The notes under the pieces are model-generated. The model made no database searches. It was not told where the DNA came from and saw only the letters and a program-made list of their open reading frames with translations. From positions 3,250 through 67,249 of the IMG/VR virus record IMGVR_UViG_3300022553_000001: a stretch of 64,000 nt of DNA. The stretch is one strand, 5' to 3'. Below are positions 20,651-64,000 of this stretch, one piece after another. Position 1 is the first letter of the stretch. Every line of letters starts with the position of its first letter. A program made the translations under genes and the position numbers. This stretch comes from a virus. Lineage: Duplodnaviria; Caudoviricetes.

Positions 20651-21190
20651 TCATTCCATTGTCTTTGCGACTAAATCCGCGCCGATACGTTTCGCTGTGC
20701 CTTCGACATTACTCTTGAAGCCGCCGTCCTCGATAGTCAAACGAATGAAATCCAATCCAATGCCGTAGGGGGATTGCCATGCGCCGTGTAATCCCTTTTT
20801 AAGGTAACCTTGATTTGTGCCGTAGTAGGCAATTGACCTCTGCACCGCATAACCCAGTTTCTCATCGCCTAATTTCCAGCGCGCCCATTCCTTGAGCGGC
20901 TCGATCGGCGCCCAATGCGGTCGTGTGCCGTAGAAAACATACTTTGCTTCCGGCGCAGTCGGTCCAACTGCAAGGGTCATCTTGGCTACATCGATTTCAC
21001 TGGATACCGAAGCCATCAGATTGCGCTTATATGCAACTGGCTCGAGTTTGCGTTGCATAATGCGCGTAATCTTCACTCCCAATGATCTGAAATTAGATTC
21101 TACAATCTGTGGTGTCCACTTAGGAAACTTGGCGAATTTGCCGGCAAGTTCGGTTGCACCCTGGGTACTGGTCTGGAAGACTACAGGCAC
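20651..21190 (-). CDS. HK97 gp10-like neck/tail completion protein
   Basis: EAKYVFYGTRPHW..LKEWARWK motif. Confidence 0.7.
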   Translation of the reverse strand: MPVVFQTSTQGATELAGKFAKFPKWTPQIVESNFRSLGVKITRIMQRKLEPVAYKRNLMASVSSEIDVAKMTLAVGPTAPEAKYVFYGTRPHWAPIEPLKEWARWKLGDEKLGYAVQRSIAYYGTNQGYLKKGLHGAWQSPYGIGLDFIRLTIEDGGFKSNVEGTAKRIGADLVAKTME

Positions 21191-56619: not shown

Positions 56620-56919
56620 ATGAAAATCCACATCAAGAAGATTGTCTACATCGCGCTAAGTGCCAATGGTAACGAGGATGCTGCGCCCCACGTTCTGAAT
56701 TCCCGCGAGGAACGTTGGATGAAGTCCATTATCAAAGAGGACTTAGGCACAGCGGGAATTTCCCGGCTCTACCGGGGCGCAATGCTCGAAGTTGGGGACG
56801 ATGTAGTCTGGCTCGAAGACTTCGGCTACGACGTTCAGCGCGACCCGGTGCTTGATGCCCGCGAGCAAGCGATACGGGCACGCCGAGTACGGCGGACAGA
56901 GTGGAAGGAATTAGTGTAA
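56620..56919 (+). CDS. hypothetical protein
   Basis: 99-aa ORF in the operon. Confidence 0.6.
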   Translation: MKIHIKKIVYIALSANGNEDAAPHVLNSREERWMKSIIKEDLGTAGISRLYRGAMLEVGDDVVWLEDFGYDVQRDPVLDAREQAIRARRVRRTEWKELV

Positions 56920-56987
56920 CGCAACCAATGGGCGTTGAATCATTGGACACAAACGACTCGCCATGTCGTAAAACTGGCGGAGGCAAA

Positions 56988-57686
56988 ATGGAACGCGGAA
57001 TGTACGGCGAAATCAAAATGAGTACAATCAATGAGAGCGAGCGTAATCAGATTCGCCAACTTGTTGAGGATGCAAATTCCGGCGCGGCGATTGATGAACA
57101 CGGCGCGTGGAATTTCGGAATCCAATCGAGCAATCGAAGTGGCACCCGGGGATTGGCGCTGAACTGGGATTGCTATGGATTCGGAAACGACATCCACTCC
57201 GGCGTTTTCCTCACGGTAATCCAGGTGCGACAGACTTCCTGGAACAAGTACGGCAACTCCTCACGCAAGTCGTATTTTTTGCTCGGCATGAATGAGGATA
57301 GAACGACATTCGCACATTGCGTCGAGTCGCGCGCGATCCACAATGCAATTGCAAGGGGTCACGACGTAGTGGTCGCAATCCAGACTTGGATGTTTGGTTG
57401 CGATTACAATAAGGTTATTCGGCAAGGCGACCTCGCGCTGGTGCCGGTGCGGTCACCGAAAGGCGACAAGACCAACGAACGCGCGGCGAGCATCGGATCA
57501 TCGCGCGGCTATTCACATCTGCTCCAATGCGACGAAGTGCGGCGCAATGGAAATCTCTATGCACTGAATCCGGTATTGACGCACAACCCCGGCACACATC
57601 GCAAAATTAGTGCACGGGGTTGGTACAAAGTCGTCAACTCGAATCGAGCACGGTTCTGGGATTTCTCCAGAACGCATGTAGATTAA
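56988..57686 (+). CDS. conserved-looking phage protein (RQGD..H..H motif)
   Basis: GGAGG SD at 56979; RQGDLALVP..SH..LTH..H. Confidence 0.65.
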   Translation: MERGMYGEIKMSTINESERNQIRQLVEDANSGAAIDEHGAWNFGIQSSNRSGTRGLALNWDCYGFGNDIHSGVFLTVIQVRQTSWNKYGNSSRKSYFLLGMNEDRTTFAHCVESRAIHNAIARGHDVVVAIQTWMFGCDYNKVIRQGDLALVPVRSPKGDKTNERAASIGSSRGYSHLLQCDEVRRNGNLYALNPVLTHNPGTHRKISARGWYKVVNSNRARFWDFSRTHVD

Positions 57687-60812: not shown

Positions 60813-60938
60813 ATAGTTGCCAACTGAAAGAGCGTAGTATTATTCACGCCAAAATACCGCAGTGTGACCTAGCCGCATTGAGCGCTCTTTCAGTTGGCAA
60901 ACTTAAAGGCGTAGATGCGGCTAGTTATTTGGAGGCAA

Positions 60939-61733
60939 ATGTATATTTACGGATTAAGGAAACCCGGGGAAAACAAGGAGACGGATATTCGGTACGTAGG
61001 CAAAGCCGAAAATCTGGAAAGGAGATTGAGAACACATCTGCGTGACAAAAGCAATAATTATAAAGTTCATTGGATTCAAGGTTTACGTAGATCAGGCATC
61101 ATTCCGGAAATATTTGTGCTCGAAGGATGTGGAGATAATTGGGAAGACCGCGAAATTTGGTGGATCGCATATTGCAAAAGCATTGGTTGCAAATTAACCA
61201 ATGGAACAAATGGAGGCGATGGCATTTCGGGATTTAGATTTTCAGAAGAATCCAGGAAGAAGATGCGGGAATCTCACAAAGGGCAAGTTCCATGGAATAA
61301 AGGGAAAAAATATCTAGATAAATACTCAAAAATTAGGACAAGTCACAAAGGACAAATCGCCTGGAATAAAGGCAAGAAAATGCCCAGAGAGTTTTGCGAA
61401 AAATTTGTCCCCTGGAACAAAGGCAAATGCTATTCTGAAAAAGAAAAGAAAATATCATACGCGTCGCGAAGGGGAATCCCACCATGGAACAAAGGAAAAA
61501 TCGCTTCAGAGGAAAGCAAAATTAAAATGTCACTTGCTCAAATAGGAAACAAACACATGCTAGGAAAACATCATACCAGGGAATCAAAACTCAAAATGTC
61601 CATTAGTCACAGAGGAAAACCAACTTGGAACAAAGGTATTTCCGCAACGGAAGAAACCAAAAGAAAAATGTCAATTAGTCAGAGAGGAAAACTACCATGG
61701 AACAAAGGAAAAAGAAAGGAGGCAAAAGCATAA
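60939..61733 (+). CDS. GIY-YIG homing endonuclease with NUMOD3 (PWNKG) repeats
   Basis: YIYGL..YVGKA..RLRTH; repeated WNKG; GGAGG SD before ATG 60939. Confidence 0.88.
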   Translation: MYIYGLRKPGENKETDIRYVGKAENLERRLRTHLRDKSNNYKVHWIQGLRRSGIIPEIFVLEGCGDNWEDREIWWIAYCKSIGCKLTNGTNGGDGISGFRFSEESRKKMRESHKGQVPWNKGKKYLDKYSKIRTSHKGQIAWNKGKKMPREFCEKFVPWNKGKCYSEKEKKISYASRRGIPPWNKGKIASEESKIKMSLAQIGNKHMLGKHHTRESKLKMSISHRGKPTWNKGISATEETKRKMSISQRGKLPWNKGKRKEAKA

Positions 61734-61796: not shown

Positions 61797-62558
61797 ATGT
61801 CAAGCCAACCAAATCCCAATGCAATCGCGCTTCCCGCCGAATTGCAAACCGAGATCGAGAACATTAACAAAGCCGACAAGAACAATGCATATCGACCCCT
61901 GAAACTCTTCGCGGTAATAAATAAAGACCGGCTCTGGATCACACAACAGGGGTCAGATGAGCCTCTGAAAAAATATGAAGAGATGGACGTGCACATCATC
62001 GCCGCGAAGATCACGCGCGCGGCGTACACGAACCGTGAGCAGAAAGCCCCGTCGTGTGTTTCAACTGATGGCGGTCACACTGGGACTCTGCACCCCGAGT
62101 TTGGGCAATTGCTTGAAATCACCGGCAAGGATTGCGATATTTGCCCACTGAACCAATGGGGAACCGGTAAGGACGAGAATGGAAATCCGACAAGGGGAAA
62201 ATTCTGCAAGGAACGCAGAAATCTATTGGCGATGTCGCCTGACTTTACTGACCCATTGATTGTCTCTCTCTCTCCCATGAGCATCGGAAAGTGGGATGCC
62301 TACGCCAGCGGACTGACTCAACTCAAGCCGCCCAGCGCCTATATCACACAGATGACACGCATCGGGGTCGAGGTAGTTACGGACGCCGGGCGCGAATTCG
62401 GAACCGCAACGTTTGCAGCAATAGGAGCGCTGTCCACTGATGCCGTGCGCCAAGCCATCGAGCTTAGGAAACAGTACCAGAACGTTATCGGAGGCATCGT
62501 GGTCGCGGAGCCGGTGGCGACTACCGCGCCGACAAGCGAAGAAGAATTACCGTTCTAG
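61797..62558 (+). CDS. putative ssDNA-binding/annealing protein
   Basis: PSCVSTDG..CDICPLNQWG..CKERR Cys motif; acidic EEELPF tail typical of SSBs. Confidence 0.6.
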   Translation: MSSQPNPNAIALPAELQTEIENINKADKNNAYRPLKLFAVINKDRLWITQQGSDEPLKKYEEMDVHIIAAKITRAAYTNREQKAPSCVSTDGGHTGTLHPEFGQLLEITGKDCDICPLNQWGTGKDENGNPTRGKFCKERRNLLAMSPDFTDPLIVSLSPMSIGKWDAYASGLTQLKPPSAYITQMTRIGVEVVTDAGREFGTATFAAIGALSTDAVRQAIELRKQYQNVIGGIVVAEPVATTAPTSEEELPF

Positions 62559-62641
62559 CAAATTGCAGCTGACCCGCCTACCGACGCGCAATTCGATGAC
62601 TTTGATGATACAACGGCGGGCAGCTGAACCGCGTGTTATGC
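62553..62641 (+). repeat. degenerate attC-like site a
   Basis: TGCAGCTGAC..GGCAGCTGAA..GTTATGC; left core degenerate (TTCTAGC). Confidence 0.6.
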
Positions 62642-62657
62642 CGCATCGGAGGAAGAA

Positions 62658-62861
62658 ATGGAATTTCCGCAGATTGATACAAGTACATGGTTTTACGAGA
62701 ATTGCAAGCGACAGCGCAAAAATGCCGCCAAGATTTGCCAAGTATGTCCATTTCGTGCCGGGATTGAAATCCAAGAAAAGGAGCGGCATAACCAGCGTTT
62801 GCAACCGAAGCGGCAAAGCCGCGTTTCTAAGAGTGGCGCGATACTCCCGCCGCTCGGTTGA
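62658..62861 (+). CDS. cassette 1 ORF, small Cys-containing protein reading through attC b
   Basis: GGAGG SD; C..CQVCPF. Confidence 0.55.
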   Translation: MEFPQIDTSTWFYENCKRQRKNAAKICQVCPFRAGIEIQEKERHNQRLQPKRQSRVSKSGAILPPLG

Positions 62862-62878
62862 AACGCAATCCGTTATGC
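62786..62878 (+). repeat. attC site b
   Basis: GCATAAC..TTGCAACCGA..TCGGTTGAA..GTTATGC. Confidence 0.85.
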
Positions 62879-62977
62879 AGATGGCGGGCGGGTAAACGAG
62901 GGGCGCACGCATCTCATCAAAGCGCCTGACTCACACGCAAGCGGGCAGAATGAGACGAACGCTTTTAACCGCCATCT

Positions 62978-63041
62978 GCATAACCCTCATTGCAGCCGAC
63001 TGGCGAACTACATGCCAGCGGCTGAACTCGATTCGTTAGAT
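62978..63041 (+). repeat. attC site c
   Basis: GCATAAC..TGCAGCCGA..GCGGCTGAA..GTTAGAT. Confidence 0.85.
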
Positions 63042-63067
63042 TTGCTTATCTTGAAAGGAGTGTTTTG

Positions 63068-63424
63068 ATGTCATATAATATTGATACCTGGAAAACCAAA
63101 AGTATTGACAGCCTTGAAATCCCGCTTGCGGTCATTCACAAAATGCCGGATGTAGAAGTTAAATTGTTGAATGATAACAAAGTCTGTATTACTGGCCTTT
63201 CAGAAGGCTTTGAAATCAATGGGGATTTGAACGGCAAGAATATTGCTGTCAATGATATTACTACCTGGGGGGAAGGTTCTGGTCATACATGGGATGACCT
63301 TCTTAAAGCGTTGAAGCACAGTAAAGGAAATCTCGTTGCTACTCAAGTTTGGGAGGGTGGTGACAGTATCACACGTCTAATCGTCAAAGATGGTACGATT
63401 ACGGAAGAGAAGGTTGAATTATGA
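63068..63424 (+). CDS. cassette 3 ORF, hypothetical protein
   Basis: AAGGAG SD; 118 aa filling the cassette. Confidence 0.75.
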   Translation: MSYNIDTWKTKSIDSLEIPLAVIHKMPDVEVKLLNDNKVCITGLSEGFEINGDLNGKNIAVNDITTWGEGSGHTWDDLLKALKHSKGNLVATQVWEGGDSITRLIVKDGTITEEKVEL

Positions 63425-63434
63425 TGATCGTGCA

Positions 63435-63527
63435 ATCTAACCAGCGCTTGCAACCAACTTGCTCGCGGGCGCGCAAATCCAATCATACTCGTAAGAACGC
63501 AAGCGGCTGAAACGCAATCCGTTAGCC
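63435..63527 (+). repeat. attC site d
   Basis: ATCTAAC..TTGCAACCAA..GCGGCTGAA..GTTAGCC. Confidence 0.85.
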
Positions 63528-63553
63528 CGCTTAATGAATAGGAGAGAATAGAG

Positions 63554-63706
63554 ATGAAAACACATCAACGCTTTGGCTTAGCTACCTTGATCGTATGGAG
63601 TACGCTGACCCAAATTGCACCGCCACATGACGAGGTGAATTTGGTATGCTGGGGCCTGAGTCTTATTTTTGCCATAATCTGCTTTGTGTGGGATGGGGCG
63701 GGCTAA
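63554..63706 (+). CDS. cassette 4 ORF, 50-aa membrane protein
   Basis: GGAG SD; stop TAA lies in the attC e core GGCTAAC. Confidence 0.65.
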   Translation: MKTHQRFGLATLIVWSTLTQIAPPHDEVNLVCWGLSLIFAIICFVWDGAG

Positions 63707-63792
63707 CCCTTCATTGCAGTTGACCGCCGCCGGTACGCCAATTTTGGATGGCCCATCTGAACACGGCGGCAACTGAACTCGATGCGTTAGAT
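63701..63792 (+). repeat. attC site e
   Basis: GGCTAAC..TGCAGTTGA..GCAACTGAA..GTTAGAT. Confidence 0.85.
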
Positions 63793-63806
63793 TGCTAGGA
63801 GGCCTG

Positions 63807-64000
63807 ATGTGTTACTGGTGTAAATTTGGTAAATCGCCTTCGTTCATCCGTGGCATCTTTGTCCATGCTGAGGGAGAGTGGGCCGGTGTTCGTTGGGCTA
63901 GTCTATGTACTAATGAAAGAGAGCGCCGACGCCAACTCCGGTTAGCCTATAAGCGTGGAGACATCCATAAGTATCCCGGGATGTACAGACGCAACCTAAC
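63807..64000 (+). CDS. cassette 5 ORF (runs to the window edge)
   Basis: GGAGG SD; MCYWCKFG..; ends at ACCTAAC, the start of the next attC. Confidence 0.55.
   Translation, partial: MCYWCKFGKSPSFIRGIFVHAEGEWAGVRWASLCTNERERRRQLRLAYKRGDIHKYPGMYRRNL

Follow-up and report, generated by a model that had tools for sequence, protein, structure and literature searches.

Multiresistance depends mainly on gene capture by integrons, which are also a store of defences against phages; does the end of the present stretch of viral DNA (Caudoviricetes), where small genes alternate with imperfect palindromes, hold an integron cassette array carried by a phage and, if so, how was it built, and can it still exchange cassettes? 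The DNA analysed (64,000 nucleotides, referred to throughout as the window) comprises the final 64 kb of the 67,249-base IMG/VR contig IMGVR_UViG_3300022553_000001; coordinates prefixed L001 refer to the start of that contig. Downstream of a + strand phage gene (61797–62558, 253 amino acids (aa)), imperfect palindromes of 64–93 nt within the window each divide off a small + strand open reading frame (ORF), and the initial annotation proposed that these are attC sites of an integron-type array. The evidence set out here makes it very likely that the locus is a genuine cassette array, built by an integron integrase of the IntI type, which resides in a phage and has no integrase of its own, in other words a CALIN (cluster of attC sites lacking integron-integrases).

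The six sites first marked in the window lie exactly where they were placed, at 62553–62641 (a), 62786–62878 (b, 93 nt), 62978–63041 (c, 64 nt), 63435–63527 (d, 93 nt), 63701–63792 (e, 92 nt) and from 63994 (f), all on the + strand, and every core sequence quoted for them is correct. The array is not, as was first supposed, confined to 62553–64000: only the first 7 nt of site f (R″ ACCTAAC, 63994–64000) fall within the window, and the array runs 1.34 kb further past the window end, across a circular junction, with sites f to k at L001:138–1487 (f in full, L001:138–202; g, L001:351–486; h, L001:630–716; i, L001:932–996; k, L001:1427–1487) and cassettes 6–9 lying between f and k. In full it spans 2,791 bp and comprises ten attC sites, eight cassettes with an ORF and one ORF-less cassette. 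Inverted cores of the form RYYYAAC (R″) and GTTRRRY (R′) are both present in sites b, c, d, e, g, h and i, while f has R″ only; since each ORF lies upstream of its own site on the top strand, the orientation is the classical one. By sequence the sites fall into three types (b and d; a, c, e, g, h and k; f and i), the last of which resembles the aadA / Xanthomonadales kind in AAGCCGACGCCGC. The guanine plus cytosine (GC) content of the sites is 0.53–0.63, with the exception of border site k (0.48).

Several structural properties support the identification of these palindromes. In an alignment of nine sites, the L helix was 92% paired, 7/10 pairs showed changes on both sides, and the outer three positions of the R box were unpaired within a site; sliding the partner by 1–3 columns, as a control, gave pairing of only 19–42%. 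When the bottom strands were folded as single-stranded DNA, those of b, c, e, f, i and k proved more stable than shuffled sequences (z from −2.4 to −4.5). Site b is the best formed (−26.8 kcal/mol, z = −4.5, full R box), and the folds of c (z = −2.5, T bulge) and e (z = −2.7, R box and bulges) are also strong. Single-base bulges of T and C, six nucleotides apart in the 3′ (″) arm of the bottom strand (T-N6-C), are encoded in 10/10 site sequences and are directly visible in the folds of a (where the T bulge lies in the L stem), b, c, e, i and k; extrahelical bases, whose absence the initial annotation had named as the point that would speak against attC, are thus carried by the bottom-strand folds. 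In the paradigm attC-aadA7, T and G are bulged at the same position and in the same arm. Sites with T-N6-C are excised as well as or better than those with T-N6-G by IntI1, IntI2*179E, IntI3 and SonIntIA (Larouche and Roy 2011, PMC3053210).

A covariance model, R1, was built from nine of the sites, leaving f out of the training set. It scores a at 60 bits, b at 48.8, c at 59.6, d at 68.6 and e at 77.2, recovers the untrained site f (23.4 bits, E 0.007), and finds no further site outside the array over the 67 kb phage genome; an Rfam scan of the window and L001 gave no attC match. Judged by their architecture, these are real attC sites, and the well-formed b, c, e and i could still be substrates for IntI.

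How the cassettes came to be joined is recorded in the cores. The R″ cores of b, c, d, e, h and i are exact complements of the R′ core of the preceding site, and those of f and g have one mismatch each (6/8 perfect), so that the offset pattern first described as perfect for b–e, with one mismatch at f, extends through g, h and i. Complementarity within a site is perfect in b alone, sites c, d and e failing to match their own right core as the initial annotation had observed, and own-site pairing totals 16 mismatches against 2 for offset pairing; among 100,000 permutations of the order of R′, the observed offset match was reached in 0.2% (p = 0.002). Because offset cores are the mark left by joined circular cassettes, it is clear that the cassettes were joined one by one at G|TT, as the IntI integrase does. 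The proposal of an integron-type array in phage DNA, bearing the insertion mark of an IntI recombinase, is therefore upheld.

Is the array truly part of the phage? It could instead be bacterial integron DNA mis-joined to viral sequence, or host DNA flanking a prophage; in favour of this, both window and contig stop partway through the array, and repeats such as attC sites are a well-known cause of breaks in assembly. The contig ends overlap, however, by 144 bases (63858–64000 of the window and L001:1–144) with one mismatch, an A/G difference (Met/Ile) in cassette 5. The phage genome is thus closed, circular or circularly permuted, at approximately 67.1 kb and, because the contig ends overlap, the CheckV completeness of 64% and the label ‘linear’ are misleading, the former probably being an underestimate. 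It encodes a large terminase (at most 41% identical to that of any cultured phage), a portal and an O-like replication initiator, and has a GC content of 0.478. Moreover, in an independent, differently permuted assembly (contig k141_116833 of ENA ERZ27245774, 67,225 bases) the array is internal to the contig. A 20,762-base stretch of this contig, L046, matches the circular join at 20,761/20,762 bases, with no gaps, and carries the array at L046:10757–13547 between phage genes. On the first contig, + strand phage genes resume after site k, and the array is co-oriented with the operon that holds it, which extends from the O-like replication gene to the DnaB and Dam genes beyond the array.

Three related phage contigs from other samples (L034, L036 and L038) encode a homologue of the upstream flanking protein with 39–59% identity. 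In L034 and L036 the gene order of window positions 58.9–62.5 kb continues into that of contig bases 1.7–4.0 kb with a gap of just 0.3–0.5 kb, and L038 has the upstream block and one downstream gene in common with this phage; the three relatives therefore bridge the same two flanks, and a filter-free covariance search found no attC in any of them. A search of IMG/VR for related loci by means of the upstream flanking protein found nothing. Neither an integrase nor an att-like border accompanies the array, and the GC content of its cassettes equals that of the phage. End overlap, independent assembly and array-free synteny in relatives together establish that the array is an insertion in phage DNA, and both mis-assembly, which the initial annotation had raised as the route by which host DNA might have been joined here, and a host flank are effectively excluded; we give them almost no weight.

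The array is accompanied by no recombinase. The initial annotation saw no intI upstream, and this holds for the entire circular genome: a six-frame profile search at E ≤ 0.1 detected no integron integrase (TIGR02249), tyrosine recombinase core (PF00589), SAM-like N-domain (PF13495), serine recombinase (PF00239) or Y1/HUH transposase (PF01797). The adjacent intI gene of a complete integron is therefore lacking, and the locus is, with ten sites in 2,791 bp, a CALIN, for which at least two attC sites close together and no integrase are sufficient. The phage looks virulent and, because it encodes no site-specific recombinase, any recombination at the array must act in trans.

Do integrases that could act on such sites exist elsewhere? 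Exact searches were made with 17-mers of the two main attC types in IMG/VR and in GTDB genomes, and with the right-arm 17-mer in JGI metagenomes. In IMG/VR and the GTDB genomes all matches were due to chance, as judged by R1 and by eye, and no named host genome with the attC type emerged from them. The JGI metagenomes yielded 104 matching stretches, mostly chance matches, among which R1 identified eight true arrays (L066, L071, L077, L086, L089, L095, L112 and L127). Their sites align with those of the phage over TTGCAG..GAC and CTGAACTCGATTCGTTAGGC, including an unusual top-strand G bulge, giving a common site type of TTGCAG..GAC / CTGAACTCGATTCGTTA. The GC content of the eight contigs is 0.52–0.66 (≥0.61 in 6/8), and no protein is common to them and the phage. 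In L112, at the end of the 66.7 kb contig Ga0207932_1000007, there is one ORF per cassette, with DUF5615 and DUF6932 genes, and the cassettes of L071 encode small proteins of membrane or secreted type. No intI was linked to any of the eight arrays in the stretches seen (for L112, the end portion of its 66.7 kb contig). The occurrence of the phage's attC type in environmental cassette arrays implies that there are integrases able to use it.

A second comparison was provided by Tetrasphaera phage TJE1, for which a three-attC CALIN has been published (PMC9892861, where a minimum of two sites per phage CALIN is stated). Applied with filters off to the 49 kb TJE1 genome, R1 gave as its top three matches 244–293, 1016–1075 and 1462–1519, all on the + strand, which correspond to the ends of orf1, orf2 and orf3, where the three-attC cluster was published; the agreement is by orf and number, not by published coordinates. 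These results bear on whether the hairpins might be mere look-alikes, that is, intergenic terminators, RNA-processing hairpins, an attC-like repeat family or the sites of another recombinase system (Xer-like, for example). Long hairpins do occur at the same intergenic place in the related phages, and at least one self-cleaving ribozyme in the operon indicates that structured RNA punctuation is in use. Terminators, however, leave unexplained the offset cores, the conserved TAAC/GTTA and the N6-spaced double bulges confined to one arm, as well as the recognition of the TJE1 sites at orf1–orf3 by a model trained on the present sites; nor is a tyrosine recombinase of any kind encoded, and on other contigs sites of this type make up cassette arrays of the ordinary kind. 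We consider such an origin very improbable.

If the array is genuine and resident, whether it is still exchangeable is a separate question, and here the borders and the state of preservation are informative. Site a, the left boundary, abuts the stop codon of the upstream phage gene. It has an intact L″/L′ stem and R′ core (GTTATGC) and no R″: what looks like its left core, TTCTAGC, belongs to the end of the upstream gene, which is conserved (...LPF stop, CCGTTCTAR; stop region CCGTTCTAG), and the same end is found in 3/3 related phages, all without attC. Site k likewise lacks R″. Because these border sites are non-canonical, whereas the inner junctions are clean, the borders do not record clean IntI action, whether they date from the first entry of the block or from subsequent erosion. 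IntI can also insert cassettes away from att sites, at attG or GTT secondary sites (bioRxiv 10.1101/2022.09.11.507474), which offers a route for the first cassettes into a genome without attI, and the end of the target gene does hold a GTT (CCGTTCTAG). Here, however, the native TTCTAG stays on the left, and site a is without the R″ with which a newly inserted cassette would arrive; on these junction sequences, canonical insertion at a GTT secondary site is rejected for the left border. In 3/3 relatives, a long inverted repeat of 90–130 nt stands 3′ of the upstream-gene homologue, at the position of the array (L034:4850–4940, L036:935–1045 and L038:3300–3400); these may be terminators or structured elements, and could have provided the point of entry.

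The principal alternative to an exchanging array is a fossil one, in which the whole block came from a bacterial array, or from that of another phage, in a single event of illegitimate or homologous recombination and is now static and slowly decaying, its hairpins merely separating small genes and no integrase acting on them any more. Several observations favour it and weigh against continuing exchange. A canonical IntI junction is missing at both ends of the array, where the end sites lack R″; the R′ of site f is degenerate (GTTCTAC); and the folds of a, d (z = −0.5, mismatches weakening the stem of a site otherwise of the type of b), g and h are no better than shuffled sequence, so that the end sites a and k and the inner sites d, f, g and h are all partly decayed. 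Between site i and cassette 9 there is an 87-bp leftover (L001:997–1083), containing a 24-codon ORF and a right half-site GTTGTTAGAT, which is probably the remnant of a deleted cassette; the idea that this ORF is the stump (N-terminus) of a methyltransferase gene found no support from Pfam or BLAST. The array is identical in the two assemblies, and no closer relatives with variant arrays were found, giving no direct sign of ongoing exchange. Finally, 7/8 cassette proteins are singletons at 90% identity, the eighth clustering only with its own fragment.

Against a fossil, the R boxes of sites b, c, e and i are still complete, their bulges are in place and they fold strongly, and six offset junctions remain perfect. 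The GC content of the cassettes is that of the phage, although the nearest relatives of the attC sites lie in DNA of GC 0.61–0.66, a contrast that speaks against bacteria of that kind having recently supplied the array wholesale; and fossil borders are compatible with exchange at inner sites. A fossil is accordingly a possible reading, if in our estimate an unlikely one, and we put the odds that a genuine, resident array is still exchangeable at roughly even. That the phage at present gathers or shuffles accessory genes, or serves as a vehicle for cassettes, as the initial annotation suggested, is thus no more than a possibility.

The cargo consists of eight ORFs of 50–137 aa, all on the + strand, each with a Shine-Dalgarno sequence and each ending at or in the next attC. 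CxxC pairs are present in several of them. In the window, cassette 1 (62658–62861, 67 aa, CxxC) carries a Shine-Dalgarno of its own, and its frame continues into site b; cassette 3 (63068–63424) encodes 118 aa; cassette 4 (63554–63706) encodes a hydrophobic protein of 50 aa, its stop falling within the R″ of site e; and cassette 5 (67 aa, CxxC) begins at 63807, leaves the window at 64000 and ends at L001:154. Cassette bodies measure 99–430 bp and have a GC content of 0.40–0.51, like the phage, with the exception of the ORF-less cassette 2 (62879–62977, 99 bp, 0.59). The ends of the latter, taken together with the flanking cores, make a perfect inverted repeat of 16 bp (GTTATGCAGATGGCGG / CCGCCATCTGCATAAC); this cassette may be the source of a small RNA or may consist of nothing but a hairpin.

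None of the cassette proteins had a significant match in Pfam or PHROGs, the few matches listed falling well below the Pfam cut-offs. Cassette 9, the non-singleton, clusters only with P0122, a protein of 78 aa on a 31 kb JGI contig that is identical to its C-terminal part. Outside cassettes, the family of the cassette 3 protein is found widely in uncultured phages: 107 homologues were found (alignment A3), in some cases in genomes of up to 184 kb or more. At the 23 loci examined, 16 of which were IMG/VR viral contigs of 7.5–184 kb, the homologues lie in tightly packed, ordinary phage gene rows beside capsid, HNH, NAMPT and RlaP genes, and no attC was found near them. This protein has no Pfam family and no PHROG match. 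Its AlphaFold model (pLDDT 95.6, mostly beta) had no Foldseek match in the PDB at E ≤ 0.001, and the highest Z from VIA-align was 5.7, with no convincing solved fold; searched by tblastn against 50,697 GenBank phages, the cassette 3 and cassette 9 proteins had no match. The cassette genes are probably phage accessory genes, rather than recent imports from GC-rich bacteria.

How does the array compare with known systems? A screen of 10,705 phage genomes recovered 17 CALINs, with virulent phages among the carriers and attC sites that were recombined by IntI1 (Qi et al. 2023, PMC9892861), and no later literature altering this picture of phage CALINs was found. The kind of element is therefore already published, leaving the concept of the phage CALIN unchanged, and the present array is a large, clean new example. 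As in TJE1 and the other published cases, the cassettes are co-oriented with the phage genes around them, and neither intI nor a phage integrase is present; TJE1 also shows offset cores (GTTATAC/GTATAAC and GTTATGC/GCATAAC). The present array differs in having ten sites and nine cassettes, compared with three sites in TJE1, in its second bulged base (C, not G), and in its very small cassettes (bodies of 99–430 bp) with no methyltransferase, and the phage is uncultured. It is further distinguished from the phage CALINs of Qi et al. by the clear empty site in relatives, the closed recombinase-free genome and a cargo that looks phage-derived. Sedentary chromosomal integrons and bacterial CALINs (Cury et al. 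2016, PMC4889954) similarly contain families of similar attC, promoterless single-ORF cassettes, occasional ORF-less cassettes and decayed sites, and the attC type TTGCAG..GAC ... CTGAACTCGATTCGTTAGGC is shared with the arrays on L066, L071, L077, L112 and L127; here, by contrast, the setting is a 67 kb phage genome, three attC types are mixed, there is no intI, and the cassettes have a phage-like GC content.

Upstream of the array, the same operon contains other features. The flanking gene itself, described at first as SSB-like, does not bear that name out, its product matching no Pfam family and, among PHROGs, none with an assigned function. One gene upstream of the array, a GIY-YIG / NUMOD3 homing-endonuclease gene (60915–61733, +, 272 aa, repeated PWNKGK motifs) sits between two genes that are adjacent in L034, which has a similar endonuclease at another place (L034:7445–8110); it looks like a mobile endonuclease. 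Further upstream, on the same strand, a Twister-P5 ribozyme (Rfam RF02684; 57687–57745, +; 52.4 bits against a gathering score of 37.6, E 5e-8) lies directly 3′ of ORF 56901–57686.

Taken with the preferred interpretation, that of an IntI-built array resident in the phage, these data suggest how the locus might work. Cassettes have been inserted between two genes of the replication/early operon and would be expressed by read-through of that operon. Further gain, loss or reshuffling would require the infected host to provide an integron integrase, for which phage replication would make the folded bottom strands accessible, and sites b, c, e and i may keep residual competence. IntI expression is SOS-controlled in many integrons. 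A wider proposal, which we put forward tentatively and think more doubtful than not, is that the cassettes belong to a pool of phage-adapted early/accessory genes that have acquired attC and are traded among phages and host integrons by host integrases during infection. Hints of such a pool are the phage-matched GC content, the tiny ORFs with their own ribosome-binding sites, and the relatives of cassette 3 in phage gene rows.

It was not until 2023 that attC sites in virulent phages were shown to be functional, and the clusters concerned were small, with few sites each. The present array is long and well preserved, in a closed, recombinase-free phage genome, with an empty site in relatives and a cargo that looks phage-made, and this makes it a good substrate for three questions: do the integrases of the host edit the genome of an infecting phage, do phages carry cassettes from one host to another, and how do cassettes originate? 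Were the cassettes indeed drawn from a phage-adapted pool, integron recombination would be a regular engine of accessory-gene mosaicism in phages, and this phage one node in it.

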